Notes under the pieces: model-generated
Databases searched by the model: none
The model's input: only the letters and a program-made list of their open reading frames with translations
Told to the model about the DNA's origin: nothing
Origin: Eledone cirrhosa
Lineage: Eukaryota
Assembly (NCBI GenBank): GCA_964016885.1
Contig: OZ024755.1
Location: 27,900,001 to 27,964,000 of the forward strand
DNA length: 64,000 bases
Direction of reading: 5' to 3'
Position numbers and translations under genes: made by a program
Shown here: positions 2,039 through 63,245 of the stretch, piece after piece
How the letters are laid out: each line of letters starts with the position of its first letter
Position numbering within the stretch: the stretch's first letter is position 1

Positions 2039-3094
2039 ATCGATTTACTAAAAGCTCAATGTAGTGCCCCTATAAGTCTTGTACAAAACTATTTTGGTAA
2101 ACGATGTAATACTGAAACAATAGATATTCAAGATATATATAAATTATTACATACAAAATATCAATCAACGGCCTCTGCAATAATAATGCTATACAGAATT
2201 GTATTAACATGTGGCTATAGTTGGTCAAGAGTTGAATGCCTGTTGTCTGCTATGGCTCACATAGACTCACCACAAAGAAGAAGTCACCTTACACAGAATG
2301 CAATTTGACATACATCTTTTTCGAAAAAGATGAATGTGAAAAAAATTAAATTTGAAGAGTTTGTAAATGAGTGGTTAAAGAAACCACGAAAACTATTTTT
2401 TTTGACATTTCATTGTATAATGTGACTTTGTTTGGAATAATATATATATTTTACTAAACAATATTTCTTTATTTTGTTTTGGCATCCCCATGTTTTAACA
2501 TATATTCAAATGGCATTACCTGGCAGAAAACCTGGCTACGGGTTTGGGATATATAGTTTATGCATGCTGCTTGTTTGCCCAAAAAGATGGAGCTAACCAA
2601 CTTCGAGATATGAAATTGCTTTTATTTTATTCAAAGATGTACGAATGTTTTATAAAGATTACGATGAGTGATCAGCGAAGATATTGCAATTGTTTGATTC
2701 TGTCGTAACTTGGGGTATGAAAAACCCCCCACAACAGAGAAACAATATATTACCTATGTGTATAGGCGGCGGACTGGCAGATTCGTTAGAATGACGGATA
2801 GAATGATGTTCTTTAAGGTCAAATCCTACGAGGTCAACTTTGCTTTTCATCCCTTCGAGGTCGATAAAAAAGTACCAGTCTAATACTGAGGTAGATTCTT
2901 CCTCTATATCTCTTTCTCATTCCCTCTCTCTCACTTTCTATCTTTCTCTGGACAAAATCTGCGGTACTCAGGTCTGGAGAAGGATGTGCTCCATTGTTCC
3001 CTTATATATTAATATTATTGATACTCTGCTTCACAAGAGTATTGAGTGCTCGTTCGACATACCGCCTACGGACGCAATTCATTTGCGCCTTATA

Positions 3095-3136: not shown

Positions 3137-3330
3137 AAAGAGGCACGACCCCGACGGCTGAACTCCGCTCCGGCATTTCGACAACTAGATCTGTTCGGAT
3201 CTAGCTGTCGAAACGGTCTCGGAGCTCAGCCGTCGGGGTCCTGACTGTTTTCCTATTACCCACACTACTACACTAAGTATTGAGTACTTTGGTGCGTTAT
3301 GGTCCTCCTGCTATCTTACCACATGCTCTT

Positions 3331-7320: not shown

Positions 7321-8608
7321 GAAAATCTTAAAGGTTATCCAGCCATCAGAGTATTCGGTTTATTTTCTTTAAATATTGCCCTGGCATGCAGTTTTTCCAC
7401 GAATAGGGATCAAACTCTATCGTATTATTGTGATCCAAACACTGTAACTCACTTAGCTATGAGCCTTCACAAATGTATGATCTGGTCTCTTCCCATCCCC
7501 ATTGCTGAGGGTCAGGGACCAATGACAATAGCACCAATACTCATCTATTAGATGTTGTATGTCCATAATTCTTATCAGGGGAAAGTGTGTTATCAGGGGC
7601 TCCCGAACCCTCGTCTGTCCATTACTTGGAAACTAGCTACTGAGCTGATGCTCATCTGCCTTACAGGGATGAAGCCATTGGCCACTTGAAAGGTTGTCAC
7701 CCAGCTAACAATAAAGTCCTACCTACTGCGGGTTTGAAATCAAAGTGATTCTTGTCCTAGACATACTGCCTACTAAAGCTAACAAGCTCTGTCTGCCTGA
7801 TATCCTTTTTTTTTTTTGTTTTACACTATTGGATGGCCATTGACTGTCCTAAGTTCCTCCACCCTTTGAAGGGTTTTGTTTTTCATCCTGCAGTGTGTTC
7901 AGAAATCATTGTCCTCACTAAGCTTGCTTGGTGAATTTGCTGGCTTAGTCACCAATAACCGGACCATGTGATGTGTCGTACTGGGTTATGTTACCAGTAG
8001 AGCTCAAGAGCAGCCTGAAATTACTTCACAAATATTACAACATTGAAATAATAATTCTAGTAAATCCCTCCAACTTCATTAGAAATACAGTAACAAAAGG
8101 GTTCACTTTTTAAAATGTTTTGTTTAAATTAATATTTTGAAATTAAAATGGAAGAATAAGCGACGAAAAGATAAACTTTATAAATTGAATTTTTAATTAT
8201 CTTTGGGAAAATTTTGCAATAATACAATGAGTCTGTAAATATTTTAAGTTTAATTATTGCTAATTAATGTCTTCATTATAATTAATGTCTTCATTTTGGT
8301 ATATGCCCCTTCCCCCATATCTGCTTGCGTGGGTTGAACAGGTCTTCTCTATCACTTCTGCCTACGTCTTGGCTTTCCTCTACTCCATTTTCCTTCCATA
8401 TGAATCTAGGGAGGCCCTTATAGTCTCGACAAGATTTAAGGGTCCACTCTACACTACACTCCATTTGATTTTCAAGCTCTTTACATAGTGTGATAGGCAC
8501 ATGTTATTGTGGTTTCAGCTCTAGAGAAGTTAAGTCCTCAACAGGACTTTTGCCTAAGTTTACCATGGAATACCTCTACCACAGCGTCCTACTTTTTTGC
8601 TTTTCTTA

Positions 8609-11600
8609 TGAGGTTCACCCTCCTGAGACCAGCTTCCCTAATATCTGGCTCAGTCTGCCTCGGCATACTTCTACCATGTCTTCCATCCATTTGTGTCTTT
8701 CCTTTGTGAGGTTCACCCTCCTGAGACCAGCTTCCCTAATATCTGGCTCAGCCTGCCTCGGGGTACCTCTACCATGTCTTCCATCCATTTGTGTCTTTCC
8801 GTTGTGAGGTTCACCTTCTTGAGACCAGCTTCCCTAATATCTGGCTCAGCCTGCCTCGGGGTACCTCTACCATGTCTTCCATCCATTTGTGTCTTTCCTT
8901 TGTGAGGTTCACCCTCCTGAGACCAGCTTCCCTAATATCTGGCTCAGTCTGCCTCAGCATACTTCTACCATGTCTTCCATCCATTTGTGTCTTTCCTTTG
9001 TGAGGTTCACCCTCCTGAGACCAGCTTCCCTAATATCTGGCTCAGCCTGCCTCAGGATACCTCTACCATGTCTTATATCCATTTGTGTCTTTCCTTTGTG
9101 AGGTTCACCCTCCTGAGACCAGCTTCCCTAATATCTGGCTCAGTCTGTCTCGGGATACCTCTACCATGTCTTCCATCCATTTGTGTCTTTCCTTTGTGAG
9201 GTTCACCCTCCTGAGACCAGCTTCCCTAATATCTGGCTCAGTCTGTCTCGGGATACCTCTACCATGTCTTCCATCCATTTGCCTTTCCTTTGTGAGGTTC
9301 ACCTTCCTGAGACCAGCTTCCCTAATATCTGGCTCAGTCTGTCTCGGGATACCTCTACCATGTCTTCCATCCATTTGTGTCTTTCCTTTGTGAGGTTCAC
9401 CCTCCTGAGACCAGCTTCCCTAATATCTGGCTCAGTCTGTCTCGGGATACCTCTACCATGTCTTCCATCCATTTGCCTTTCCTTTGTGAGGTTCACCCTC
9501 CTGAGACCAGCTTCCCTAATATCTGACTCAGTCTGTCTCGGGATACCTCTACTATGTCTTCCATCCATTTGCCTTTCCTTTGTGAGGTTCACCCTCCTGA
9601 GACCAGCTTCCCTAATATCTGGCTCAGTCTGTCTCGGGATACCTCTACCATGTCTTCCATCCATTTGCCTTTCCTTTGTGAGGTTCACCTTCCTGAGATC
9701 AGCTTCCCTAATATCTGGCTCAGTCTGCCTCAGGATACCTCTACCATGTCTTCCATCCATTTGCCTTTCCTTTGTGAGGTTCACCCTCCTGAGACCAGCT
9801 TCCCTAATATCTGGCTCAGTCTGCCTCAGGATACCTCTACCATGTCTTCCATCCATTTGTGTCTTTCCGTTGTGAGGTTCACCTTCTTGAGATCAGCTTC
9901 CCTAATATCTGGCTCAGTCTGCCTCGGGATACCTCTACCATGTCTTCCATCCATTTGTGTCTTTCCTTTGTGAGGTTCACCCTCCTGAGATCAGCTTCCC
10001 TAATATCTGGCTCAGTCTGCCTCGGGATACCTCTACCATGTCTTCCATCCATTTGCCTTTCCTTTGTGAGGTTCACCCTCCTGAGACCAGCTTCCCTAAT
10101 ATCTGGCTCAGTCTGCCTCAGGATACCTCTACCATGTCTTCCATCCATTTGTGTCTTTCCGTTGTGAGGTTCACCTTCTTGAGATCAGCTTCCCTAATAT
10201 CTGGCTCAGTCTGCCTCGGGATACCTCTACCATGTCTTCCATCCATTTGTGTCTTTCCTTTGTGAGGTTCACCCTCCTGAGATCAGCTTCCCTAATATCT
10301 GGCTCAGTCTGCCTCGGGATACCTCTACCATGTCTTCCATCCATTTGCCTTTCCTTTGTGAGGTTCACCCTCCTGAGACCAGCTTCCCTAATATCTGGCT
10401 CAGTCTGCCTCAGGATACCTCTACCATGTCTTCCATCCATTTGTGTCTTTCCGTTGTGAGGTTCACCTTCTTGAGATCAGCTTCCCTAATATCTGGCTCA
10501 GTCTGCCTCGGGATACCTCTACCATGTCTTCCATCCATTTGCCTTTCCTTTGTGAGGTTCACCCTCCTGAGACCAGCTTCCCTAATATCTGGCTCAGTCT
10601 GCCTCGGCATACCTCTACCATGTCTTCCATCCATTTGTGTCTTTCCGTTGTGAGGTTCACATTCTTGAGACCAGCTTCCCTAATATCTGGCTCAGTCTGC
10701 CTCGGGATACCTCTACCATGTCTTCCATCCATTTGCCTTTCCTTTGTGAGGTTCACCCTCCTGAGACCAGCTTCCCTAATATCTGGCTCAGTCTGCCTCG
10801 GCATACCTCTACCATGTCTTCCATCCATTTGTGTCTTTCCGTTGTGAGGTTCACCTTCTTGAGATCAGCTTCCCTAATATCTGGCTCAGTCTGCCTCGGG
10901 GTACCTCTACCATGTCTTCCATCCATTTGTGTCTTTCCGTTGTGAGGTTCACCTTCTTGAGATCAGCTTCCCTAATATCTGGCTCAGTCTGCCTCGGGAT
11001 ACCTCTACCATGTCTTCCATCCATTTGTGTCTTTCCTTTGTGAGGTTCACCTTCTTGAGATCAGCTTCCCTAATATCTGGCTCAGTCTGCCTCGGGGTAC
11101 CTCTACCATGTCTTCCATCCATTTGTGTCTTTCCTTTGTGAGGTTCACCTTCTTGAGATCAGCTTCCCTAATATCTGGCTCAGTCTGCCTCGGGGTACCT
11201 CTACCATGTCTTCCATCCATTTGTGTCTTTCCTTTGTGAGGTTCACCTTCTTGAGATCAGCTTCCCTAATATCTGGCTCAGTCTGCCTCGGCATACCTCT
11301 ACCATGTCTTCCATCCATTTGTGTCTTTCCTTTGTGAGGTTCACCTTCTTGAGATCAGCTTCCCTAATATCTGGCTCAGTCTGCCTCGGCATACCTCTAC
11401 CATGTCTTCCATCCATTTGTGTCTTTCCTTTGTGAGGTTCACCCTCCTGAGACCAGCTTCCCTAATATCTGGCTCAGTCTGCCTCGGGGTACCTCTACCA
11501 TGTCTTCCATCCATTTGTGTCTTTCCGTTGTGAGGTTCACCTTCTTGAGACCAGCTTCCCTAATATCTGGCTCAGCCTGCCTCGGGGTACCTCTACCATG

Positions 11601-13700
11601 TCTTCCATCCATTTGTGTCTTTCCTTTGTGAGGTTCACCCTCCTGAGACCAGCTTCCCTAATATTTGGCTCAGTCTGCCTCGGCATACTTCTACCATGTC
11701 TTCCATCCATTTGTGTCTTTCCTTTGTGAGGTTCACCCTCCTGAGACCAGCTTCCCTAATATCTGGCTCAGCCTGCCTCGGGATACCTCTACCATGTCTT
11801 ATATCCATTTGTGTCTTTCCTTTGTGAGGTTCACCCTCCTGAGACCAGCTTCCCTAACATCTGGCTCAGTCTGTCTCGGGATACCTCTACCATGTCTTCC
11901 ATCCATTTGTGTCTTTCCTTTGTGAGGTTCACCCTCCTGAGACCAGCTTCCCTAATATCTGGCTCAGTCTGTCTCGGGATACCTCTACCATGTCTTCCAT
12001 CCATTTGCCTTTCCTTTGTGAGGTTCACCTTCCTGAGACCAGCTTCCCTAATATCTGGCTCAGTCTGTCTCGGGATACCTCTACCATGTCTTCCATCCAT
12101 TTGCCTTTCCTTTGTGAGGTTCACCCTCCTGAGACCAGCTTCCCTAATATCTGACTCAGTCTGTCTCGGGATACCTCTACTATGTCTTCCATCCATTTGT
12201 CTTTCCTTTGTGAGGTTCACCCTCCTGAGACCAGCTTCCCTAATATCTGGCTCAGTCTGCCTCGGCATACCTCTACCATGTCTTCCATCCATTTGTGTCT
12301 TTCCGTTGTGAGGTTCACCTTCTTGAGATCAGCTTCCCTAATATCTGGCTCAGTCTGCCTCGGGATACCTCTACCATGTCTTCCATCCATTTGTGTCTTT
12401 CCTTTGTGAGGTTCACCCTCCTGAGATCAGCTTCCCTAATATCTGGCTCAGTCTGCCTCGGCATACCTCTACCATGTCTTCCATCCATTTGTGTCTTTCC
12501 GTTGTGAGGTTCACATTCTTGAGACCAGCTTCCCTAATATCTGGCTCAGTCTGCCTCGGGATACCTCTACCATGTCTTCCATCCATTTGTGTCTTTCCTT
12601 TGTGAGGTTCACCTTCTTGAGATCTGCTTCCCTAATATCTGGCTCAGTCTGCCTCGGGATACCTCTACCATGTCTTCCATCCATTTGTCTTTCCTTTGTG
12701 AGGTTCACCCTCCTGAGACCAGCTTCCCTAATATCTGGCTCAGTCTGCCTCGGCATACCTCTACCATGTCTTCCATCCATTTGTGTCTTTCCTTTGTGAG
12801 GTTCACCTTCTTGAGATCAGCTTCCCTAATATCTGGCTCAGTCTGCCTCGGGATACCTCTACCATGTCTTCCATCCATTTGTGTCTTTCCGTTGTGAGGT
12901 TCACTTTCTTGAGATCAGCTTCCCTAATATCTGGCTCAGTCTGCCTCGGGATACCTCTACCATGTCTTCCATCCATTTGTGTCTTTCCTTTGTGTGGTTC
13001 ACCCTCCTGAGACCAGCTTCCCTAATATCTGGCTCAGTCTGCCTCGGGATACCTCTACCATGTCTTATATCCATTTGTCTTTCCTTTGTGAGGTTCACCT
13101 TCCTGAGACCAGCTTCCCTAATATCTGGCTCAGTCTGCCTCAGGATACCTCTACCATGTCTTCCATCCATTTGTGTCTTTCCGTTGTGAGGTTCACCTTC
13201 TTGAGATCAGCTTCCCTAATATCTGGCTCAGTCTGCCTCGGGATACCTCTACCATGTCTTCCATCCATTTGTGTCTTTCCTTTGTGTGGTTCACCCTCCT
13301 GAGACCAGCTTCCCTAATATCTGGCTCAGTCTGCCTCGGGATACCTCTACCATGTCTTATATCCATTTGTGTCTTTCCTTTGTGAGGTTCACCCTCCTGA
13401 GACCAGCTTCCCTAATATCTGGCTCAGTCTGCCTCGGGATACCTCTACCATGTCTTATATCCATTTGTGTCTTTCCTTTGTGAGGTTCACCCTCCTGAGA
13501 CCAGCTTCCCTAATATCTGGCTCAGTTTGCCTCGGGATACCTCTACCATGTCTTATATCCATTTGTGCCTTTCCTTTGTGAGGTTCACCCTCCTGAGACC
13601 AGCTTCCCTAATATCTGGCTCATTCTATCTTCGAATAACTCTACCCTTTCTTCCATCTATTTGTGTCTTTTCTTTGTAAGGTTACTCTCCTAAAGATCAA
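8609..13700. repeat. Satellite array of 98/96-bp units, about 52 copies
   Basis: Unit tgaggttcaccctcctgagaccagcttccctaatatctggctcagtctgcctcgggatacctctaccatgtcttccatccatttgtgtctttcctttg; contiguous, no unique spacers; diverged units at both edges. Confidence 0.97.
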
Positions 13701-15639: not shown

Positions 15640-16420
15640 TTGCAAGCCATTTACAGAGGAGCTGTCAGTAATGTGAGAGTAGGAAGTGAGGTTAGTGAGG
15701 AATTCAAGGTACAGGTAGGAGTTCATCAAGTTTCAGTTCTTAGCCCACTGTTGTTCATCATAGTTCTCCAGTCCATAGCAGAGGAGTTTAAAGCTGGCTG
15801 TCCAAGAGAACTTCTCTATGCAGATGGTCTGATCCGTATAGCTGAATCCATATAAGTACTATTGAATAATTTCTGATTATGGAAATGGAATTTGGAATCA
15901 AAAGGTCTGAGAGTAAACAACAAAAACTAAATTGCTAGTAAGTAGGAAAGAAGATAGGACACTGATTCTTTCAAGGAAGTGACCCTGCTCAAAATATAGA
16001 AATGAAGCAAGCATAACCTTCATATAATATACACAATGTAAATCTTGGGTACACAAAGGATGTAGTGGGATAACAAGTAGACTAATAGGAAAGGGGTAAT
16101 CGAGGAGGAGAGTGTCAATGATATAAACTATTTCCGATCGCAGGAAGGATCCATAGAAGTGGTTGATAGCTTCTACTATCTAGGTGACTTAATTAGCAGT
16201 AGAAGAGGGTGCTCTGGGAGCATAATAGCAAGAGTAAGGATAGAATGGAAGAGGTTTAGAGAGCTACTTCCACTGTTGATAACAAAGGGTTTCTCCCTAC
16301 AAACGATGCCTGTAATGCTGCATGGTAGTGAAACATGGGCAATGACTGTAAAGGACCAGTGTAGGCTGGAGAGAAATGAAGCAACCATACTTCATTGGAT
16401 GTGCAATGTAAATGTGTGAG
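15640..16420 (+). pseudogene. Decayed RTE LINE RT fragment related to the 16.6-20 kb element
   Basis: VGVHQVSVLSPLLF, ELLYADGL, MLHGSETWA motifs. Confidence 0.85.
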
Positions 16421-16469
16421 GAAGGCAGAGGTTAGATGAACGAGGGGAGAATCGGGTTTTACTCTATTT

Positions 16470-16625
16470 TGATATCTGAAGAAATCTCGATATCTATCGT
16501 CATTGAAATATGTATAACGGCTCAATTAGTAAAAGACTCTTTAATAACATCTACAACTTCCTCAATCTAAATATACTCCATCATCCTTATTATTTTGAAG
16601 AAGCAATGTGATATTGAGTGCTTGA
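16470..16625 (+). mobile_element. Penelope-type 3' fragment with degenerate hammerhead motif
   Basis: CTGAAGA(16476)-aat..cgata/tatcg..att-GAAAT-atgt-ATA; stem I poorly paired; tail atactc...gagtgct. Confidence 0.45.
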
Positions 16626-16631
16626 AGTGAA

Positions 16632-17171
16632 TTGCATCCATGTCTACTGAATATATATATTTTCTGGGTGGGAAATGACAATGGGCTGGGTGGAGTAGGA
16701 ATCATGTTAGCAGAAAAATGGGTGGATAAGATAATAGACGTAAATAGAGTAAACGACAGAATAATTAAAATAAGACTTGTTCTAAATAGAACTACTGTGA
16801 CGATAATATCTGCGTACGCGTCCCAATCCGGACTGCCTGGCGCTATAAAAGACACTTTCTATGAGACACTGATGCTCACTACCTCCCAAATAACCGACAG
16901 TGACTATATAATTATTGCTGGCGACCTAAATGGTCACGTTGGACAACATTGTGACGGCTATGATGAAATCCATGGAGGCTATGGGTTTGGTACTAGAAAT
17001 GAGGAAGGCTCCAGAATCCTGGAATTTTGTGACGCAAATTACCTAACAATCTGTAACACTAACTTCAAAAAACGAGACAATCACTTGATCACCTACAGAT
17101 CAGGGGAACATACCAGCCAGGTAGATTATATCCTGACCAGAAGACGTGACAGAGTCTGTTGTAAACACTAA
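16632..17171 (+). pseudogene. Apurinic-like endonuclease domain of the RTE ORF
   Basis: GVGIML, ISAYASQ, GDLNGHVG, ICNTNFKK, QVDYIL. Confidence 0.9.
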
Positions 17172-17875
17172 ATCCCTCCCCCATGAAGAATGCACCTCCC
17201 AACATAGACTGATAATTAGCGACCTCATAGTCAGGACGAGACGTACTCGACAGCAGAAGAGGACTATCCTCAAGAGAAAAATATGGAAGCTAAAGGACCC
17301 CACAGCCAGAAATAAATTTCAAAGCATATTACTTGATGCTTTCGACAGTAAGGAAGAGCATTTAGAGTCGGACAATATAGAGGGACAGTGGGAATTCCTG
17401 AAAGCAAACCTGCTGATGGCGGCAGACGAAGTCTGTGGCCGGAGCAGGCCTATAGGCAGGAGGAGAGTAACATGGTGGTGGAACAGTAAGGTGGAGGAGT
17501 CGATTAAGGCCAAAAAGCAGGCTTGGAAAGTATGGTGGGATGGGGGAAGTAGAGAAGACTATCAAGTGGCCAGGAGGGAAGCTAGGAGACAAGTGTACTT
17601 CGCAAGAAGGGAAGCAGAGGAAAGAAAGTTCAAGCATGTTCTACAACGTGAGGACCAAAAACGTGAGGTGTTCAGGATTGCTAGGCAATGTGTCAAGGAA
17701 AACCGTGATATTGTTGGGGAGAAGTGTGTACTAAATGATGATGGCGTACTCGCCATCACTGACGCTGATAAGAAGGTCGCTTGGAAGTGTCACTACGAGA
17801 GGCTACTAACTAAATGAGGAGAATAAATGGGAGAAGGATAGTCTCCCCCAGATCGATCCAATAGAGGGACCAGCA

Positions 17876-19042
17876 GTGTTAGTTGAAGGTAGTATAATAA
17901 GTAAGGCAATCAAAGATATGAAGACGGGTAAGGCGGCTGGGCCTTCGGAAATAGTTGCTGAGATGCTAAAGGCCTCTGGAACGGTGGGACACACCATGAT
18001 CACCCGGATAGTAAACCAAGTCATACAGAATGGGGTTGTTCCGAAGGACTGGCGTAGCAGCATCATCATTAACTGTTACAAGGGAAAAGGAGACGCCCTA
18101 GATAGGATTAACTATAGAGGGATTAAATTAATCGACCAGGTCATGAAGGTCACGGAAAAAGTAATAGTGCAACTAATCAGAGAGAGAATCGATCTAGATG
18201 AAATGCAGTTCGGGTTTGTGTCAGGCAAAAGTACCACAGACGCTCTTTTCATTGTACGACAACTACAGGAGAAGTACCTAGCTAAAAGTAAACCCCTATA
18301 CTTAGCCTTTGTCGACTTGGAGAAAGCCTTCGACAGAGTCCCCCGTTCCATTATCTGGTGGGCTCTTAGAAAACTAGGTGTTGACGAATGGCTTGTGAGA
18401 GCTATACAAGCCATGTATAAAGAAACAGTGAGCAAGGTTAGAATTAACAACGAATATAGTGAAGAGTTTAGCGTAAAAGTTGGTGTCTATCAGGGCTCTG
18501 TTCTTAGCCCCCTACTATTCATTATTGCTCTTCAGGCTATAACAGAGGAGTTCAAGACCGGCTGCTCATGGGAACTCCTATACGCAGATGACCTAACGCT
18601 CATAGCTGAATCAATGGCCGAGCTAGAGAAGAAATTCCAAACATGGAAGCACGGCCTAGAATCAAAAGGCCTTAAAATTAACCTGGCTAAGACTAAAGTT
18701 CTAGTTTGTAGGAAAGAAAATAAGGCGGCGGTCCCTTCCGGGAAATGGCCATGCTCAGTGTGTAGGAAAGGCGTAGGTAGAAACTCCATTTTATGTCCCA
18801 AATGCAAAGTATGGGTGCATAAAAGATGTAGTGGGATCACAGGTAAGCTAACTAAGAACACAGATTTTACATGTGGCCGGTGCTCTGGTGCAATAAGTAG
18901 CAGCAAGTGCCCACAAAATACTAGCTCTTTCAACTGCGCAGAGGGTTCTATAGAAATAGTGGACAGCTTCCGTTACCTGGGTGACAAAATCAGCAGTGGG
19001 GGAGGGTGCTCTGAAAGTACAGTAGCTAGAGTCAGAACTTGA
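17876..19042 (+). pseudogene. Reverse transcriptase domain plus C4HC3 finger of the RTE ORF
   Basis: 388-aa frame with NYRGIKL, QFGF, DLEKAFD, YADD and CSVC...CPKC...H..C...CGRC. Confidence 0.93.
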
Positions 19043-19695
19043 TGGAAAAGTTCAGAGATCTTATACCACTATTAGCCGCTAAAGGGTTCTCCCTAAAAAT
19101 GAAAGGCAGATTGTATGATGCCTGCATACGAACAGCAATGTTGCATGGCAGTGAGACCTGGGCATTGTGTGCAGAGGATATACGCAGACTAGAGAGGAAC
19201 GAAGCTTGCATGCTCCGCTGGATGTGTAATAGTAATATACGCGAACGGCAAAGCATAAACGAACTAAGGAAAAAAATAGAAATAAGAGGGATCAGATGTT
19301 GTCTACTCGAGAGAAGGCTACGTTGGTATGGTCACGTGATGCGCATGAAAGACGACAGCTGTATAGCAAAGTGCAGGGCAATAAAGATAGACGGTAGCCA
19401 CGGAGTAGGCAGAGCCAGAAAAACCTGGGACGAGCTGATAAATTCCGACCTCACACACTTACACCTCTCCAAGACAATGTCACTGGACCGAGACCTTTGG
19501 CGGTACTCAGTAATAGAGAAGACCCGCCTTACCTAAATACAAAGTAAAACCTACTACAGTCAGTAGGCATCTCTAACAAAATACACCACCCCCACCTCAT
19601 CCACACCATCCCTTTCAATGTAAAGTTATGTTGGTGCCACAAAATCCAGGCCGAAACAAATGAGATCGTGTAGGTGTCACGACAAAAAAAACACA

Positions 19696-20030: not shown

Positions 20031-20414
20031 TATATAGAAAGGATAAAAAGGACGATTGATTATTCCTTCATTGCATTTATTGATAGGTGACGCGCGTTTC
20101 GCCACTGATCAGCTCAAGGTTCGATCTATATCGATCCTACCCGACTCAATAATCGTTTTCTTATAGCATTTTAAGAGGGTCCGTCGAGCTGCCGATTATT
20201 GAGTCGGGTAGGATCGATATAGATCGAACCTTGAGCTGATCAGTGGCGAAACGCGCGTCACCTATCAATAAATGCAATGAAGGAATAATCAATCGTCCTT
20301 TTTATCCTTTCTATATTTTACACTCTGTATAGCTCTACACATCATCACAGAAGTGAACCTAAACATCGAGTGCTCTCCCAGGTGAACCTGCAGTAACTCC
20401 TAGTTACACCCACT

Positions 20415-23162: not shown

Positions 23163-24733
23163 TATATTATTATACTTTGGGAGGGTCATGTTTCCAATAA
23201 GAAACGCACGCACCAGTTGCTTTCACTTCAATTTATTATAAATTAAATTATAAATTTAAAAATTAATACATTTCCGGTTGGTTGGTTGGTTCCACAACCG
23301 GATGGTTGTTCATATATTGTCAAAGTTCTTTCGTCACACATTCTGTAACCTCTTTAGTGACTGGGGATTCTTTTCTTTGTTTTGTGCCTCTCCTTTGTTC
23401 TGTCCTATGCCATCTTGTTTTTGTGTGTGTTGTGTGCTTAGTTTGCGCATGTTACATTCGAGTGTCTGTGTGTGTTTTTATTTGTTTATTTATTTGTTTA
23501 TTTATATGTTACTGGTTGGTGGTTTGTTCTATGTGTGTGTGTTTTCATTTTGTCCTTAATTGTGAGTTGTGATGTTGCTATTCCATTCATGTTTTCTATT
23601 TAATTTTGGTTGGAGTTCATTTATGTTTATTGCCCCTGTGATTTGTCTAAACATTGCGTCTTTTCTGTGTGTAGATTCTATTTTTATTTCTATGTTCTCT
23701 AATTTGCCCTTGTGTTCTATTTTAGCATGTTGGTGGAGTATTGATGAGTCTTTTCTATCTTGGAGTTCTCGCCAGTGTTCATTTAATCGTTCTCTAATGC
23801 TACGAGCTGTCTCACCTATGTACATTATATTCTTATCTTTACATTGTCCCTCAGTACATCTTATGCTATATACTATGTTTCTAGTTTTACATTTAATATG
23901 GGTGCTTAGTTTACAGATTATGCATTTCCCATCTATACAGGGAGGGCTTTGAAAGGGGTATGTATTACTAATAATAATCTATTACTAATTATAATGTATT
24001 ACTAATAATAATAATGACCTCCCTATATGGATAGGAAATGCATAATCTGTAAACTCTTTGAAAGGGGTATGTATTACTAATAATAATGTATTACTAATAA
24101 TAATAATAGCATAAGATGTACTGAGGGTAAATGTAAAGATAAGAATTTAATGTACATAGGTGAGACAGCTCGTAGCATTGGAGAACGATTAAATGAACAC
24201 TGACGAGAACTCCAAGATAGAAAAGACTCATCAGTACTCTACCAACATGCTAAAATAGAACATAAGGGCAAATTAGAGAACATAGAAATAAAAATAGAAT
24301 CTATACACAGAAAAGACGCAATGTTTAGACAAATCACAGAGGCAATAAACATAAATGAACTCCAACCAACTTGTTTTTGTGCCTCTCCTTTGTTCTGTCC
24401 TACGCCATCTTGTTTCTGAGAAACAAGATGGCGTAGGACAGAACAAAGGAGAGGTACACAAACAAAGAAAAGAATCCCCAGTCACTGAAGAGGTCACAGA
24501 ATGTGTGATCAAAGAACTTTGACAATATATAAACAACCATCTGGTTGTGGAACCAACCAACCAACCGGAAATTTATAAATTCCTAAATTTATAAATTTAT
24601 TATAATAAATTGAAGTGAATTGCGACTGGTGTGTGTGTTTCTTATTGGCAACATGACCCTCCCAAAGTATAACAATATCGGTTTCAACACACGTTTTCAG
24701 ATAAAGAATCTTGCTAAACAAATTCAGAAACGA

Positions 24734-24735
<2 letters not shown>
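23163..24735. mobile_element. Penelope-like element remnant in inverted arrangement: GIY-YIG endonuclease C-terminus plus pLTR
   Basis: Minus ORF 23556-23825 YIGETARSIRERLNEH...ILHQH...INELQPKLN; plus-strand copy 24110-24680; decayed hammerhead gtca-CTGAAGA-ggtcaca/tgtgatc-aaa-gaac-tt-tgac near 24481; flanked by (TA)n. Confidence 0.88.
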
Positions 24736-27934: not shown

Positions 27935-28973
27935 CTGGTTTTCAAATCAGCTCCACAACATTTTGAAATAACGAACATGATATATAACAGTAATTATATT
28001 AATATCCTACTAAACTGAGATTGGATACAGAAACAAGAACAATAACATTGCAAGTGTCGATAGACCGTCGCTCAACATGCTTCGTGGCATATAGTTACGT
28101 TCCTTTATGTTACGTGTTCAAATCATGCCGAGCATACCTTTTAAGAAGGCCCAATGATTGCAAGCAGCCCTGACTAAAACAAATAGAATACAATCCTGGA
28201 AAGGAACTTAATCCCCTTATAGTGACACTGCTTAGCTTGTCTGGCAAAGAGAATCTGTTCTCATTTTATATGTTATTTGTGAATACAACGTGATAGAGTT
28301 CATTAGCACACATTTTGCAAGCTGTTAGTGAATGCGGCTATATCAGAAAATAATAATTATGTACACCCACTAACGTTGGGAACTAGATTACATAGAACAT
28401 TAAGTGGCTGTCTAGAAAATGTGTTAATATTAAATAAATGTCAGGATTATAATAATGGATATATGTATATATGTAATCTTCAGCCAAGGTGATAGTTAGA
28501 AGAGCTAACAACAGTTAGAGATTAATATAAACATTGGTTTTTAAACCTATCCAGGAAATGTATATATATATATATATATATGTATATATAATAAGGGTTG
28601 ACGGACCCAGCATATTTATCAATGCCAGTACCGGTTGTATCTCAGCGCACTCAATGGGCAATGTAAGATACATTACCAGAGTATACACATAGTTGTGTAT
28701 ATATGTATATATATATATATACCCCTCAGAACTACCCCCCAGAAACGATCGTAAAATAATGAGTTTTACTATGAATTAACCGTTTTTTTTTTGTTTAATT
28801 TCATTGTTTTAATATTTCTATTTTTGACTCTGTATCCAATGAATTATATCGTTGAAAATTTTGTATTTTAAACTTTGCTTCACAACATCTTCTACATACG
28901 GATTACATTGAGTTCTTCATACGGTTTAGACCCTACCATTGATTGGTAGATTTATCTGTATATATATATATAT

Positions 28974-29383: not shown

Positions 29384-31390
29384 ATATCTTTCTTTATTTG
29401 CCACAGGGGCGTACAAAAATGGGACATGGCGGCGTGGCGGCGGCGGTTTTACATAAAAATCATATAACTTTAACATCAATAAATAACAAACTATATATAA
29501 TAAAATAACATTTGAAGTCCCCAATAGGGGGAGGGGACGTTACTGCAGGGTTGTTTTACACCCCGTGGATAGAACAACCCTCAACACCAGGAACACGTTT
29601 TGTAGGTGTTCCCGTCTTCCCTCTTTTTATCTTCCTCAGCCTACAGGTTTATATACAGAGAAGGCCCATTTACTCGGGCTATTTTCGCCACATTTATCCA
29701 CTTTTACTGGGGTGTAGTACCTCTCTCTCCACACTCACCTTCCTTCTGAAGTGGTACTTAAAGAAGGGGATGAGTTGTTGTCCAGAGAGCAAGGTGTTTG
29801 CCCTCAGTCCTTTTAACCCGTCCACCATATTACCTTTTTCGCCATAGCCACCAGACAGAGGAAAACCGCCTCTCCTTCATTCTTATATGAAGGCGGCGGG
29901 GTGATCCTCACGATGGACTCGGCTGACAACAGGATGCGTCCCACACGTGACAGCAGCTGTTCGACATAATTCCACAGGTCGGTCACCCCTGGGCACTGAA
30001 CAATTGCGTGCAGAACGGTTTCGATGTCCTGTTCGCATCTTGGACAGGTCCTTTTGGCAGGATCTCTGCCAGGGCGTCCGTGCCTGTAGATTTTGTCTCG
30101 AACTGGTAGAGCTCCTCGGTAGCACTGCCAGGCCAGAGACCCCTCGAAGTTATCCATAGGCCCTGGACGGAAAGCCCTCCCGAACAGACTGGTCAGTTCG
30201 TCCTCCTCGATGCCTAGAGTTTCCCCGAGAACGTCGTTGCACTTATCCTCCACTAATCCCCTATAGAATGTCGAAGTGGAGTCTCCGCTGATTGGCGTTT
30301 CCACTTGGTAGAGGGCTGTGAGCGCCTAGAGGCACTCGAGGTGCCAGGCGCCCATTTTCGGTCTCCGCTTGACCCAGGACTGCAGCTCTGTTAGTGAGAC
30401 GAGTTGTGGAAGAGCTTGTCTCACAAACGACAGCCACACCGGTTCGCCGGTCAGGAATACCTGGAGAGGGCGTAGCCTCAGCGCGTGTTTGCGCAACATC
30501 AGCCACGGCATGCCCAGCCCTCCGTTAGAAGGGTGTTGACAGCAGATGGATCTCCTCACCAATGAAGACTGTTTTTTCCAGAGGAACTTGAAGAGTAGGC
30601 ATTCCATTTTTTGTGATGTGTTCGCGGGGACAAGGAACGACTGTCAAGCGGTAGTAGATGACGGACGCTATGTAAGTGTTCACCACCTTCGCTCGACCTT
30701 TCAAGGAGAGTTTGCACTCAGCCCACTTCTGGGTGAGTGCAAACACCTTCGCCGTGACCTCGTTCCAGTCCTTGTCCACCTGGAGGTCTGGACCAAACCA
30801 GACCTCGAGCAATTTCACCGGTCCTTCCGTCCAGCGTCCAACGACACTGTCGGAAGGCATGGGTTTGCCTCTCCAAGTGCCGAGTTGCAAACCGACAGAC
30901 TTGTTTGGGTTTAGTCTTGCTCCTGTCAACGTTTCGTATTCCTGTAATAGGTTGCCGATTACCCCAATGTCCGAGGTTTTCGACACCATTACGGTTACGT
31001 CGTCGACATAGGCCGACGCTGCTTTCCGCAGTCCTGGTTCGATCGGGATGCCCTGCAATAGCTTCAACTTCCGCAGTAATGGCTCGAGAGTCAGTACTTA
31101 CAGAATGGAGGAGAGAAGGCATCCCTGACGGATGGAACGCATGATTTCGAATGGCTCCGATAGGTAGCCATTCACCTTGACTGCCGAGCAGATGCTGGTG
31201 TGCATGGCAGCGATCCAGCCTCTGAAGATGGGACCGAAGCCTGCCGCCTTGAGAACAGCTTTCAAGTATTGATGGTCGACCCTATCAAATGCCTTAGTCT
31301 GATCTAAATTGATCAGAGCCCCACCGAAGCCAGGTTTACACTCTACCCTCTCTATGATGTATCGCATGAGGTGGAGGTTGTCGTGTATTG
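29384..31390 (-). mobile_element. L1/Tx1-type non-LTR retrotransposon, 3' portion, disrupted
   Basis: Minus frames LDQTKAFDRVDH, IRQGCLLS, AYVDDV, GGLGMP and CCHC-type CPRC..ETVLHAIVQC; 3' end gtggcaaataaagaaag into (TA)n. Confidence 0.9.
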
Positions 31391-31629
31391 AAAAATATGA
31401 CGTCGGCGTGGAGAGAATTATGAATTTATTTGCATTGAGATGTTTCTGTGTTTATTATAAATTGTCTACATATGCTGACTACAATATAAATTATTCAATC
31501 TTATGCAAACTTCCCAATATTTTTACATCCTAGGAAATTTTGAGATCTTGAAACACATACCCGTTTTGAATTGATCGCATGCAGTCTCTTTTACGAGTAT
31601 GTCATATAACATTTTATACATCTAATATT

Positions 31630-31790
31630 GTATTTTGTCTGAAGAAGGCATCCTATAACTTAGTATCCCAGAAATATATATAACGAAATAAATAATGATG
31701 CTATAGTGATATATATTCCTTTTATTACTATTATTATCATAATACTCCAGATACATTTAATTGTAGAGTGCTTCGTGTCTGTTATGAACA
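31630..31790 (+). mobile_element. Penelope-type 3' fragment with hammerhead motif (relative of the 34344 family)
   Basis: ttttgt-CTGAAGA-agg...ccca-GAAAT-atat-ATA-acgaaa; tail atactc...gagtgct. Confidence 0.65.
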
Positions 31791-34167: not shown

Positions 34168-34328
34168 GTTATTCCGGGTTGAATCGGAGGTAACCACAGT
34201 AAGTAAGGTACTCAATACATAGCAGAGTATAAAAGTTTTAATATAGATTAAGTTTTAATAGAGATTCCTGATGATTTCTAATGAATGAAACAGTTCTAGT
34301 CCTGTAGAATCTCATCTATATTAAAACT
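34166..34328. mobile_element. Penelope-type module: tail on minus strand, hammerhead-bearing arm on plus strand
   Basis: Minus tail atactctgctatgtattgagtacc; short inverted overlap agttttaatatagat / atctatattaaaact; flanked by (TA)n. Confidence 0.65.
34261..34313 (+). ncRNA. Type I hammerhead ribozyme motif
   Basis: gagattc-CTGATGA-tttctaatgaat-GAAACAG-ttctagtc-CTGTA-gaatctc; 7-bp stem I, 4-bp stem III, weak stem II. Confidence 0.75.
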
Positions 34329-34343
34329 ATATATATATATATA

Positions 34344-34801
34344 TACAATATTAAATAAATGGAAAACTATATTTATAAAACCATATTTATTTCGTTATAT
34401 ATATTTCGGGGATATCATATTAACAATATGCTATGCCTTCATCAGACAAAATACAATATAAACAGTTTTATAGATAAATATATTCGACATACCGTAATAA
34501 ACATCAACTTCATTTGAAGAGGTTCACTCTAGAGTGAACCTCTTCAAATGAAGTTGATGTTTATTACGGTATGTCGAATATATTTATCTATAAAACTGTT
34601 TATATTGTATTTTGTCTGATGAAGGCATAGCATATTGTTAATATGATATCCCCGAAATATATATAACGAAATAAATATGGTTTTATAAATATAGTTTTCC
34701 ATTTATTTAATATTGTAAATATACTCCAAGTATTTGTCGAGTGCTTTTATATCAGTTATAAATATTTACTAGTTGTAACCCAACAATTTTAAATATAACT
34801 T

Positions 34802-34805
<4 letters not shown>
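34344..34805 (+). mobile_element. Penelope-type foldback module: 374-bp palindrome plus 88-nt tail
   Basis: Palindrome centred at 34530/34531; hammerhead 34610-34671 ttttgt-CTGATGA...GAAAT-atat-ATA-acgaaa mirrored on the minus strand. Confidence 0.85.
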
Positions 34806-34831
<26 letters not shown>

Positions 34832-34835
<4 letters not shown>

Positions 34836-44319: not shown

Positions 44320-44516
44320 ATGTAATAAACAACACGATATAATTATTCCATTATCCAAGGTTTCACGAAGACAGGCGACCCCTTGGGTGGAATAATTATA
44401 TTGTGGAATAATTATATAATGGAATGATTATATTGTTGTTTATTACACAATTAAATAGCTCTGTACTATACATAGAGCACTCTTCTTTCCTTTACCTTAT
44501 CCACGGAAATACTTTG
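44320..44516 (+). mobile_element. Family C foldback module
   Basis: Inverted arms tgtaataaacaac.../...gttgtttattaca; tail gctctgtactatacatagagcactc; relatives at 4139-4285 and 62619-62710. Confidence 0.6.
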
Positions 44517-44536
44517 TATATATATATATATATATC

Positions 44537-45080
44537 CAAAATTAAATTAAGGGTGTCATGTCCGAGACATGCGCCATATACAGCGTAGAATAAGCTCAAA
44601 GATTCCAATGAATAGATCCGAGCATTTTATATCAACTAGAAATAGATTGACAAATATATATATATATATATATATATATTTAAAATAAACACATGAAACA
44701 ATCACAGGGGATAAGCTAGGTAGGTAACTAATTAAAGTTTAACTAGAACTTCAAATATAGATACCTTTTCAAAATGATTAATCTTCGTTGTATATATATA
44801 TATTTCATTAAAGAAATATTTTTCACCATTAATCCGTAAACACAGATAGTTAAATCTCGGATTTTCAACAGGGGAGAAGATTTAACTATCTGTGTTTACG
44901 GATTAATGGTGAAATATATTTCTTTAATAAAATATATATACATATTTGAAGTTCTAGTTAAACTTTAATTAGTTACCTACCTAGCTGTGTGTGCTTACAC
45001 ACTTTACAAATTATCCCCTGTGATTGTTTCGTGTGTTTATTTTAGATATACATATATGTCAATCAATTTCTAGTTGATAT
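44537..45080 (-). mobile_element. Older imperfect foldback module (about 450-bp inverted repeat plus tail)
   Basis: Arms 44630-44857 and 44878-45080 with indels; minus-strand tail starts aaaat-gctc...gagc; no intact hammerhead seen. Confidence 0.6.
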
Positions 45081-51062: not shown

Positions 51063-51489
51063 ACTTGTTACTCTGGAATTTTGCCTGTTTATCACAGCCA
51101 TCACACTATTTAGGCTTAATAGATTGAATATTTATGCTCTACTTCGGCATTGAGCACTTTTTTTCTCTGTCAGATACAATGTCAATATTAAACTTTTTGA
51201 GAATGTGTAATAAGTTTTTTAAAGTAGCTTGACACTATCAACACCATTTTAGCTGCTCTGTCAATTTGCTTTACAAATTGCAACGAAAATCTTTTTCCTA
51301 ATATATTCTTAACTTTTTAATACGAATCTCTTTCTCTGCAGTGACAATATTAACGTTAAAAAAAAAAAAAGGATAGAAGGAAAGTTTTTTCTGGAAATTC
51401 TCTCTAGCAGATAAACACAGTTCTGTGGAATAGAAAAAAAAATCTCTTTAGAAACAATAAAATATAAGCATTCGAAAGGAAATAATGAT

Positions 51490-53091: not shown

Positions 53092-53357
53092 ATATAAGAG
53101 GGAGATATATGATCACGAGTGATTACATATTCTTACTTGACACTTCATCATATAGTGAGGATAATCACACCATAATAACTCTATGACATAATCATGTGCG
53201 CATGACTATGTCATAGAGTTATTATGGTGTGATTGTCCTCACTATATGATGAAGTGTCAAGTAAGAATATGTAATCACTCGTGATCATATATCTCCTTCT
53301 TATATAGTCATGTGCGCATGACTATGTCATAACTCTATGACGTAGTCATGTGCGCAC
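53092..53357. repeat. Near-perfect palindrome of about 214 bp plus an adjacent nested mini-palindrome
   Basis: Arms 53092-53190 and 53207-53305 around tcatgtgcgcatga; central motif recurs at 53306-53357. Confidence 0.85.
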
Positions 53358-53788: not shown

Positions 53789-54441
53789 ATAATAATACTT
53801 CTGTAATAACTACGTTTCTGCTTTGAATATTTGCCAGTAATAGGGCAGGCATAAGGAATTACCTTGCGGTGTTAGGGTGTCATAGATACTTGCTATTTTT
53901 TTCTGATCAGTTCCGACTACGTATCATTTCGTATTACTTTTGAATCTATTGCGTGCATATTGTGTTTAAAATAAGCAACTATGGTACATGGGGTTAATGC
54001 TATACGCTATCCCTTTATCTGTTACCCCTTTGTTGCCTCTCCCATTGTATTAGTTTGTTTGTGAACGCATGAGTGGTGATTTCATGCATTATTGCTGTTT
54101 AACTTTCACAAAGGTTCTGCTCTCTTCTTCCTCAAATGGAACGTCTTTAAAATCATTTTCTGAAGGCAAAGAAAGCTCTCATTTCTTTTGTGAGACAAAT
54201 GTTACCAGTTTTGTTTGAAACTGATTTTTATTATATTTTTCAATCCCGATTTAGTTTGGCCTTTACTTTCGACATATCTAGACATTATATATTCAATATC
54301 TATCATACCTAAACTAAAGTCTGTCTAAAGTAAAAACATTACAGAAAGAAAGAAAAGCTGTAACACTTTCTGAGGAACATTCTTTGAAACATAACATAAA
54401 AGCTGGGAGGGATCAATGATACCTGACGACTACTTGAATAA

Positions 54442-54982
54442 CTAAAGAGATACCTAAACAGGGTAGCTAAAAGAGATATCTAAACAGAGTTGCTAAAGAA
54501 ATACCTAAACAGGGTAGCTAAAGAGATACTTAAACAGGGTAGCTAAAAGAGATACCTAAACATGGTAGCTTAAAGAGATAACTAAACAGGGTAGCTAAAG
54601 AAATACCTAAACAGGTTAGCTAAAGAAATACCTAAACAGGGTAGCTAAAGAAATACCTAAACAGGGTAGCTAAAGAAATACCTAAACAGGGTAGCTAAAG
54701 AAATACCTAAACAGGCTAGCTAAAGAAATACCTAAACAGGGTAGCTAAAGAAATACCTAAACAGGGTAGCTAAAGAAATACCTAAACAGGGTAGCTAAAG
54801 AAATACCTAAACAGGTTAGCTAAAGAAATACCTAAACAGGTTAGCTAAAGAAATACCTAAACAGGGTAGCTAAAGAAATACCTAAACAGGGTAGCTAAAG
54901 AAATACCTAAACAGGGTAGCTAAAGAAATACCTAAACAGGGTAGCTAAAGAAATACCTAAATAGGGTAGCTAAAGAGATACC
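54442..54982. repeat. Minisatellite, 25-bp unit, about 21 copies
   Basis: Unit ctaaagaaatacctaaacagggtag. Confidence 0.95.
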
Positions 54983-56327: not shown

Positions 56328-56560
56328 TTTTAGAGGGATCTCCTTGCTAAGCCCTCCACCCCAATAAGGTTTATGCTAAGTCCTAGCAAAGAGTTGTAGG
56401 GAGATTGTTGAGTCCAAGCTAGCTGATGAACAGTGTGGTTTTCACCCAGGACACAGCACAGCCGACCAAATATTCACAGGTCTTTGAGAAATCATGAGAG
56501 TACAGTTAAGGGATGTGTTCTTGCTTTGTATTTCTCCAAATGTCACGTGACCGCTTTCCA
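56328..56560 (+). pseudogene. Short decayed RT fragment homologous to 50215-50460
   Basis: agagggatctccttgctaagcc...gagtccaagctagctgatgaacagtgtggttttc. Confidence 0.6.
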
Positions 56561-56669
56561 CGATCTTTGAAAAATCATGATAGTACTATTAAGAGATGTG
56601 TTCTTGATATGCATTTCTCCAAATGTATGTCATATGACCGCTTTCCACGAGACATGCAGTGTTAGTTGT

Positions 56670-57263
56670 TAAACCACGATCAAGTAGATCCTTGTTCAAG
56701 AGCATCTGCCAGGGAATATTTAATAGTTTATGTGTATATAGGATTATGATGTATAAACCAGGATCAAGCAGATCCTTGTTCAAGAGCATTCTGCCAGGGA
56801 ATATTTAATAGTTTATGTGTATATAGGATTATGATGTATAAACCATGATCAAGCAGATCCTTTTTCAAGGGCATTCTGCCAGGGAATAGTTCATATTTTA
56901 AGTGTATATAGGATTATGATGTATAAAGCATGATCAAGCAGATCCTTTTTCAAGAGCATCTGCCAGGGAATATTTAATAGTTTATGTGTATATAGGATTA
57001 TGATGTATAAACCAGGATCAAGTAGATCCTTGTTCAAGAGCATTCTGCCAGGGAATAGTTCATATTTTATATGTATATAGGATTATGATGTATAAACCAG
57101 GATCAAGTAGATCCTTGTTCAAGAGCATTCTGCCAGGGAATAGTTCATATTTTATATGTATATAGGATTATGATGTATAAACCAGGATCAAGTAGATCCT
57201 TGTTCAAGAGCATTCTGCCAGGAAATAGTTATCTTTTAGGTTTATATAAGATTATGATGTATA
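56670..57263. repeat. Minisatellite, 84-85-bp unit, 7 copies
   Basis: Unit taaaccaggatcaagtagatccttgttcaagagcattctgccagggaat...ggattatgatgta. Confidence 0.93.
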
Positions 57264-58026
57264 ATCGTGCATAAGAAAGTGCAATTTTCAGGCAGAACAA
57301 GTACTGTTTCTTGAAGATTGAGGGACGAGGCAAATTGACTTCTTTAAGCCTATATTCCAAGGATGGGTATTTTCTTAAGGTAAGAAATACTTTTTAGAGT
57401 TGGGACGAAAAATGATTGCCTGATATCTATTTCAAATATCATGCAACGAGAATATTTCGTACTGTACAGCTAGATTAGCTTACATTGAAGACTTTTTTTT
57501 TCCTCTTTCTTGTTACCATTAAGAGATAATAATTTGTCGAATGCCTCATGAGACGAAATCTACAACCATTTCTTTGTTCATCTGCTTTTGAGAACAAAAC
57601 GTGAAACTAAAATTCGTTCAAGATATCCAAGAAAAGACTTGCGGAAGTGTGTTAAACACAATTAACCTTCGATTAACATCACCCTATGTTATTGAATCCG
57701 GAAGGTTCAAAGGGCAAAGATGGAGAGGGCGACGATGAGAGGAGGTAGAATATATCAAGAATATATCAAGAACGCTCTGTTTCTGATATGTTACTATCCA
57801 TTTCCTATATATTAAATGCTTCATATTTGACAAATGTCATTCTGGAAGCCACTGCGCATGTGCAATTGTCTTTGTCTTTTTTATGTGTTAGCTATATATT
57901 TGAATAATTAAATATATTTCCATATTTTTTCAACTGTCTGAAATGTATTTATCGTCATCACATTTCATTTTCTCATTATACATTTCACACACACACGCAC
58001 ACGCACACACACACATACACACACAC

Positions 58027-58256: not shown

Positions 58257-59641
<1,385 letters not shown>

Positions 59642-59645
<4 letters not shown>

Positions 59646-59798
59646 AAGTTATATTTAAAATTGTTGGGTTATAAAACTGTTTATATTGTATTTTGTCTGA
59701 TGAAGGCATAGCATATTGTTAATATGATATCCCCGAAATATGTATAATGAAATAAATATGGTTTTATAAATATAGTTTTCCATTTATTTAATATTGTA
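59642..59798. mobile_element. Split copy of the 34344 family: antisense tail end joined to hammerhead arm
   Basis: 59642-59670 is the reverse complement of 34777-34805; 59671-59798 matches 34590-34717 including CTGATGA...GAAA. Confidence 0.8.
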
Positions 59799-59904
59799 TA
59801 TATATATATATATATATGTGAATATAGGCATAGAATATTCGAAAATATTCTGTATGTTTATAATAAACATTTTGAAGACCTAATCGCTATTTCAGAGCAT
59901 TTAT

Positions 59905-59953
<49 letters not shown>

Positions 59954-59956
<3 letters not shown>

Positions 59957-62206: not shown

Positions 62207-62411
62207 ATAGGAACGAGTAGGACCCCGACGGCTGAGCTCAAGCTGTTTCGACGGCTAATTCTGAACTAAAATTTAGTCCAGAATTAGCCGTCGAAACGGC
62301 TTGAGCTCAGCCGTCGGGGTCCCACTCGTTCCTATTACCCACTCTACTACCCTAAGTATTGAGTACTTTGGTGCGTTATGGTCTACCTGGTTCCTTACCA
62401 CATTTCTTTCG

Positions 62412-62757: not shown

Positions 62758-63245
<488 letters not shown>

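Follow-up and report, generated by a model that had tools for sequence, protein, structure and literature searches.

Hydra-clade insertions in the window

The window analyzed here is a 64,000-nucleotide stretch of the 3.0-Gb genome of Eledone cirrhosa (contig OZ024755.1, positions 27,900,001 to 27,964,000), and abounds in (TA)n runs with short palindromic insertions in them. Among named proteins, the best relative comes from Argonauta, in keeping with an octopod. At the flagged site, which gives the 34344 family its name, two pLTR arms meet head to head, and only the direct arm continues into a tail, which carries a small bulged hairpin (Table 1). The hammerhead motif in the pLTR was judged by eye against the layout in File S2 of PMC8557442, and was not detected by Rfam in the window or in the 10 loci searched. 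The tail sequence runs on into the 5′ UTR and ORF of a full-length copy at another locus (L051), and the tail is therefore the first part of the 5′ UTR. Full-length copies carry a second hairpin just past the tail, which is absent from the flagged copy; hairpins 1 and 2 lie between the hammerhead and the start codon, ~55–90 nt apart. A further piece of the 34344 family, at 59640–59796, consists of a reversed tail fragment joined to a tail-less direct arm.

All seven ACTC or GCTC...GAGT or GAGC sites cited in the initial annotation are present in the sequence, as are the tail-only matches that it placed near 3021, 16572 and 31742, the second of which is decayed. We located four additional copies.

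Table 1. Features of the flagged insertion and copies of the motif in the window (M1, hairpin 1).
Feature	Position	Strand	Remarks
(TA)n target, left side	34328..34345	.	adjoins inverted arm
Inverted pLTR arm	34346..34530	-	ends at site 1, without tail
Direct pLTR arm	34531..34715	+	185/185 match to inverted arm; equals L051 pLTR
Type I hammerhead motif in pLTR	34608..34673	+	8-bp stem I, core 34616, minimal stem III; by eye
Tail, 89 nt	34716..34804	+	5′ UTR start, site 1 to site 2; same sequence continues into hairpin 2 and ORF in L051
M1, 34344 family	34723..34742	+	ACTC, inner stem-loop, TC bulge, GAGT; folds as bulged stem
(TA)n target, right side	34805..34833	.	after tail
M1, family A	62341..62364	+	arms ~62210–62332, tail to 62412; family linked to Hydra ORF
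M1, second family A copy	58358..58381	+	not among the sites first cited
M1, family B	20322..20371	+	long inner loop; family linked to Hydra ORF
M1, 34166 family	34210..34228	-	full-length copies without intact hairpin 2
M1, family D	62929..62954	-	cited site confirmed
M1, family C	44458..44478	+	G-C outer pair; no ORF link here
M1, 44537 family	44594..44623	-	G-C outer pair; hairpin 2 past tail, no ORF found
Tail-only motif copy	3023..3047	+	from sequence
Motif downstream of old hammerhead-bearing pLTR, related to 34344 family	31744..31769	+	from sequence
Decayed motif copy	16575..16619	+	first inner pair broken; covariance model E 0.18
Extra motif copy	51136..51155	+	not first cited; training sequence of covariance model R1
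Extra motif copy	28649..28682	-	not first cited
Extra motif copy	3254..3293	.	not first cited
Control: tail of non-Hydra GIY-YIG (24677) family	24675..24734	+	motif-free; Pfam GIY-YIG in ORF piece 23559–23978 minus

The intact ORF of the 34344 family (L051:4699–6912, minus strand) encodes 737 amino acids and is followed by a second pLTR and tail. It is a single ORF with YRDD at residue 352 and, by eye, an endonuclease-like C-terminus; RWR is found at 37 and DKT at 118 (the Hydra RWK motif and DKG to DKT change), CxCX5C at 596, CxxC at 694 and CxH at 721. Pfam gave no match for this ORF, and its predicted structure (mean pLDDT 88.7) has TERT as its best structural match (3du5, E 5.7e-10). The Hydra clade of Penelope-like elements described by Craig et al. 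2021 (PMC8557442) shares the single ORF with reverse transcriptase (RT) and C-terminal GIY-YIG-type domain and the motifs RW[K/R], DKT, CxCX5C, CxxC and CxH, as well as the pLTR hammerhead, the (TA)n target, the inverted 5′-truncated copy and the one-sided tail; the predicted hammerhead here (canonical layout by eye) and the (TA)n insertion agree with that description. Its tails differ, being 30–40 bp long and ascribed to the endonuclease, whereas those of the window families are ~65–105 nt long and bounded by hairpins. The tendency of Hydra elements to be generally short (<3 kb) is not seen in the 34344 family, which repeats at 4,011 bp in tandem (L082–L084) because of a 3′ UTR of ~1.5 kb. 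This 3′ UTR (L051:3240–4700) is full of simple repeats and the tandem 4,011-bp units are exact; transcripts of such units would have hairpins 1 and 2 located after the ORF. The ORF region has at least 90 genome copies of 95–100% identity, most with open frames. Assignment to the Naiad/Chlamys elements was rejected, the endonuclease-like domain being C-terminal rather than N-terminal and a hammerhead being present.

The motif-bearing families had been called unrelated, which does not hold: five of them (34344, A, B, D and 34166) link to Hydra-clade ORFs whose proteins are 37–56% identical, and on this sequence evidence those five are Hydra-clade Penelope-like retroelements. No ORF link was found for the C and 44537 families. 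Past its hairpin 2 (L260, L262, L254) the 44537 family continues into non-coding sequence without a Hydra ORF, and may be non-autonomous. The family A hammerhead (62272–62335; L161) departs from the canonical core and carries a long insertion in stem II. The 24677 family carries a canonical-type Pfam GIY-YIG domain and by eye belongs to a non-Hydra clade; the motif is missing from it, as first stated, being carried by 0/7 tails. No relative was found in viral contigs.

Elsewhere in the window, a tandem satellite of ~98 bp occupies 8549–13699, and further arrays lie at 54439–54982 (50 bp) and 56481–57264 (~84 bp). A 214-bp near-perfect palindrome at 53092–53305 is not TA-bounded and is followed by a partial repeat. 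LINE-type RT ORF fragments occur at 16081–19536, 29813–31451 and 58380–61114, with LINE-type pieces in inverted arrangement at 58537–60218.

A bulged hairpin with covarying inner pairs

In its full form the motif consists of RCTC, an inner stem-loop of 4 to ~60 nt, a two-base T-led (UN) bulge and GAGY, mostly followed directly by AC or GC. The central CTC and GAG are invariant in aligned genome copies, in rows that were picked by pairing or fitted to a model. RNAalifold folded 19 hand-picked genome copies as a bulged hairpin, and in the same copies the outer pair was A-U in 11 and G-C in 8, with three inner pairs of several types; these rows were chosen by their pairing, so that both results are circular. 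The outer pairing proposed in the initial annotation is real, but the proposal left out the conserved 2-nt bulge on the 3′ side and the covarying inner stem. The swap between A-T and G-C that it described as preserving pairing is also seen, in the proportions just given, but A-T belongs mostly to hairpin 1 of this genome and the swap may reflect few events.

An independent test was provided by 77 metagenomic loci encoding Hydra relatives, of which 46 extended 150 nt ahead of the ORF; these formed 33 clusters, which still include two duplicate pairs, and the statistics ignore kinship among rows. The motif was present 20–150 nt before the ORF in 32/33 clusters, as compared to 0/33 in each of three ORF windows and 3/33 on the reverse strand. 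For 53 metagenomic copies, only CTC, GAG and the 3′ flank served as anchors, and pairing was not a condition of selection. Inner pairs 1, 2 and 3 formed in 48/52, 31/45 and 28/34 of these copies, with shuffle means of 39.9, 20.0 and 13.4; the observed counts were reached by 0 of 10,000 shuffles. A 2-nt bulge fits 49/53 of them (other lengths, at most 21) and is T-led in 50/53, and TA stands at −6/−5 in 25/53 (any other offset, at most 16). A covariance model built from this genome only gave 56 matches in 31 metagenomic loci, 54 of them on the sense strand of the element. G-U and A-C combinations, which could tell the folded strand, are few.

Single hairpins fold weakly (z −0.3 to −3.0), several minimum-energy folds are without the bulge, and the family A hairpin prefers another fold. 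Rfam 15 returned no covariance-model match at gathering score for the window (best 150 of 296 rows, all below) or the 10 loci, with microsatellite noise only. Two further identities were rejected: MITE terminal repeats, since the arms meet head to head and the ends are unequal, and miRNA precursors.

Compensatory changes spanning loops of 4 to ~60 nt, and a bulge on one side only, agree with a single strand that folds and not with a duplex. They therefore speak against the possibility that the GIY-YIG endonuclease reads the motif as DNA and trims an intermediate or the donor, thereby setting the ends. The invariant CTC/GAG and a near-palindromic 3′ flank would suit such recognition; moreover, PMC8557442 attributes the tails to endonuclease resolution, and, according to earlier work cited in PMC11167929, the Penelope endonuclease needs tail DNA for cleavage. 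However, hairpin 2 is missing from the cDNA of tailed copies and the junctions show microhomology to the TA target, and we regard recognition in DNA form as quite unlikely.

Frequency was assessed in a motif-blind sample of 78 ten-kb genome stretches scanned for TA-anchored inverted arms, from which 60 distinct TA-bounded tails of 25–140 nt were kept by inverted-arm geometry alone. The motif starts at most 17 nt from the junction in 31/60 tails and 9/24 clusters, against a mean of 0.44 and a maximum of 4 in shuffled tails (500 shuffles) and 172/15,600 (1.1%) in random stretches. The other 29 tails come mostly from motif-free families, including the 24677 family. At least eight more TA-inserted families have one-sided tails of 39–71 nt without the motif (L035, L066, L049, L056, L063, L038), two of them with a strong unbulged hairpin in the tail. 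No ORF link or clade was found for the eight motif-less families, and specificity for Hydra elements therefore rests on the 24677 family and on a search of the PMC8557442 supplement. In that search, four diagnostic 9-mers gave seven matches in the whole supplement, four at Hydra ends and three inside other sequences. By eye, among six consensus sequences in File S7 the motif is clear in Hydra-2_Amil and Hydra-2_Ajap and occurs twice in Hydra-1_Ajap, is possible in Hydra-1_Crog and Hydra-1_Amil, and is not clear in Hydra-1_Obim; the published consensus sequences with the motif are from coral and sea cucumber.

Two hairpins and the two insertion ends

The ends of TA-bounded copies are bimodal in each family, lying either just before the motif or 60–95 nt after its start, with almost nothing between. 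TA-like element letters at the ends make each junction an interval, not a point. At site 1, the commonest interval includes −5 in the 34344 family (13/19 TA-ended copies), in A (28/33), B (6/8) and 44537 (17/22), and, with a noisy probe, in the 34166 family (14/33); the fit to −5 is seen in D by family-typical sequence and in C by the cluster representative. With TA microhomology allowed for, 7/7 window families have a tail-less end compatible with a position 5 nt before hairpin 1. At the flagged site itself, ACTC starts 7 nt past the arm end, or 5 nt if the shared TA is assigned to the arm. The spacing of 5–10 nt given in the initial annotation is indeed constrained, with intervals that include −5 across families, but its spread largely shrinks to ~5 once TA microhomology and family-typical sequence are considered. 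RAD-seq DNA runs from an organism mostly 90–95% alike hold TA runs joined at site 1 in 7,800–10,597 reads per run, counts that a few loci may dominate.

The motif had been taken to mark the inversion point. Hairpin 1 does so, but it is not the only mark, since a second copy past the tail end marks the other end. Hairpin 2 was predicted beforehand at this place, and was searched for with a pattern made of the tail end followed by RCTC. It was found with a Hydra ORF behind it in 4/6 matches of A, 2/2 of B and 10/10 fetched of D (18 matches), and was also seen in 34344 (L051) and 44537. The tailed end lies ~5 nt before hairpin 2 in 5/6 tested families, the 34166 family being without hairpin 2. 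Relative to hairpin 2, tail ends fall at −6..0 in A, −7..−3 in B, −9..−3 in D and −11..−4 in 44537, a family left out of the end histogram for a TA run in its probe. Among the downstream ends of the 34344 family, 14/46 lie 6 nt before hairpin 2 and fit −6..−3, and 29/46 lie 8–9 nt before it and fit −9..−7; the latter count against a common spacing, but would agree with −5 if the primer pairs across one G-T wobble. In the metagenomic set, most Hydra elements have two motif copies, at ~−100 to −135 and ~−35 to −70 from the start codon, and 5/7 TA-bounded ends include −5 (two before hairpin 2, three before hairpin 1), the remaining two lying at −13..−11 and at a place that matches no hairpin.

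The 34166 family runs counter to the reading of the hairpins as start signals: it has long open ORFs and a tail, and only a worn 3′ half at the place of hairpin 2 (12 copies of 130 pattern matches; L398–L409). Its tail ends are more scattered, from +61 to +67. One locus of this family (L401) is a short tandem of pLTR and UTR without an ORF and is retrozyme-like.

Hairpin 2 lies ~35–70 nt before the start codon in most elements, and TA-rich boxes stand ahead of both hairpins. This is what would be expected if the hairpins were translational operators of the 5′ UTR, for an element protein or a host factor, and the ends were set only by TA-like boxes that pair with the target. However, many other TA-rich boxes in UTRs and pLTRs rarely serve as ends, and the distance from box to hairpin is conserved across hosts, which makes an operator very unlikely to be the explanation. 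The same fixed distance at both hairpins would also be explained if they guided cutting of the RNA ~5 bases upstream, by an element protein or a host nuclease, and ordinary priming followed at the 3′ ends so created; a hammerhead is already part of the element. The cut site of that hammerhead (~34665), however, is ~50 nt upstream of site 1, and according to PMC11167929 initiation in a Poseidon element is internal and ribozyme cleavage is unneeded, yet RNA-seq reads end at the sites. We consider RNA cutting to be unlikely.

The two kinds of end are coupled. In five Hydra families, 84 head-to-head pairs were collected, of which 72 had both ends classed: 70 combine site 1 with site 2, two have site 2 twice and none has site 1 twice. 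Loci that had not been fetched with the family's own tail gave site 1 with site 2 in 20/20 pairs. The non-Hydra 24677 family shows the one-sided tail pairing in 14/15 classed pairs without the motif, which is therefore not needed for tails generally; end coupling is common to Penelope elements in general, with the hairpin as the form that the signal takes in Hydra elements.

Arm lengths bear on how the two ends arise. One end of each kind would result if a single cDNA began at the tail end, folded back to copy itself, and then halted just before hairpin 1 or jumped from there to the target. Many arms are equal with a palindromic center (39/55 rows of family A agree within 10 nt), and PMC3846280 interprets such palindromes as self-priming. 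However, the tail-less arm exceeds the tailed one by >10 nt in 14/55 rows of A (some duplicated), 4/12 of D and 4/7 of B, for instance with 642 nt tail-less against 133 nt tailed; the 34166 family was left out of this comparison, its probe holding the inverted arm. A fold-back copy cannot exceed its template, barring later deletion, and the template jump offered in the initial annotation is thereby weakened. Fold-back also gives no account of hairpin 2, and appears highly improbable. Rare variants shared by both arms versus present in a single arm numbered 12 versus 19 in 34344, 3 versus 68 in A, 1 versus 49 in D and 1 versus 4 in B.

Arms of the 34344 family often reach only ~195 nt upstream of site 1, where a short natural inverted repeat lies (34515–34545), and those of family A often stop at 55–65 nt. 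These frequent arm ends may correspond to the 5′ end of the RNA or to a preferred joining site.

Proposed start signal of reverse transcription and relation to known systems

The earlier proposal of a structured cis-element, with compensatory changes and at a constrained distance from the arm boundary, is supported, in Penelope-like elements, and withstood both checks set for it, on covariation and on the spacing between motif and junction. It had been read as a signal for either RT or endonuclease recognition, and we lean towards the former: as judged from sequence patterns, the hairpins are probably binding sites on the element RNA, at which the element protein starts reverse transcription ~5 bases upstream, the endonuclease acting on DNA being kept at the low likelihood given above. 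Hairpin 2 is left out of tailed copies; it thus cannot act in cDNA, and should act on the RNA template.

More tentatively, a protein dimer could grip the two identical bulged hairpins on one RNA and prime from both nicked (TA)n strands, five bases upstream of each hairpin, and it is conceivable at the same level that both insertion strands are built from RNA alone. In the scheme that goes with the start-signal reading itself, the endonuclease would nick both strands of a (TA)n run, and each nicked end would pair with a short UA box lying 5′ of a hairpin held by the protein, priming a cDNA there. The two cDNAs, which would likely be made by two protein copies on one RNA, would then be joined at their truncated ends, yielding a head-to-head palindrome with a one-sided tail.

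Several features of this scheme are reminiscent of other retroelements. In L1 twin priming, priming from both nicked ends of the target on a single RNA leads to an inversion, as in the scheme suggested for Hydra elements; there, however, the position of the second site can vary and the inverted segment is not a repeat of the direct one, whereas in Hydra elements both sites are fixed and the arms overlap. In telomerase RNA, a protein-bound helix beside a short primer-alignment stretch positions the template. The likeness to telomerase is by analogy only, via the TERT fold of the predicted Hydra protein.

The Poseidon element PAc of Anolis (Frangieh et al. 2024, PMC11167929) has two internal RT starts that bound its tail, AT-rich targets nicked on both strands and a predicted dimer, and a protein-binding RNA region near the starts was inferred; as in PAc, element ends here map to fixed sites beside an RNA structure. 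PAc differs in that it belongs to another clade, its starts lie inside the ORF with one AC-rich stem-loop, no repeated conserved hairpin is reported in the sections consulted, and its priming is not target-homologous, whereas a short TA match is seen here. Stringent LINEs (PMC5135761) also carry a small bulged stem-loop near the priming site that is recognized by the RT. In those elements, however, the loop is upstream of a 3′-terminal priming site and is copied, whereas here the hairpin is 3′ of the start, lies in the 5′ UTR and is duplicated, hairpin 2 remaining uncopied.

A term search found neither 'hairpin' nor 'bulge' in the available text of PMC8557442, and neither 'hairpin' nor 'stem-loop' in its supplement. 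More generally, the bulged-hairpin motif is not described in the openly accessible parts of the literature searched (PMC8557442, PMC11167929, PMC3846280, PMC7229834, PMC4209133, PMC5135761 and bioRxiv 10.64898/2026.07.22.740005). The element clade, its tails and the existence of two start sites were already known; the cis-element is real and apparently unpublished.

Penelope-like elements are the closest retrotransposon relatives of telomerase, and the motif bears on how they choose their start sites and form inverted insertions with one-sided tails. An in vitro system is asked for in PMC8557442; the two start sites given for one element in PMC11167929 come with no conserved signal in the portion consulted. 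With a short, covarying and duplicated motif that keeps its distance to each of the two ends constant, start choice can be tested by point mutants, and the young 34344 family, with its many intact ORFs, supplies the protein. Hydra elements and non-coding fragments of them abound in this genome, and the motif also helps to recognize them and fix their limits. If the dimer version is true, a ruler made of two hairpins would account for why Penelope-like elements have a one-sided tail and head-to-head arms, and the motif would be a portable 20-nt signal that chooses where an RT starts, a minimal relative of telomerase template positioning.
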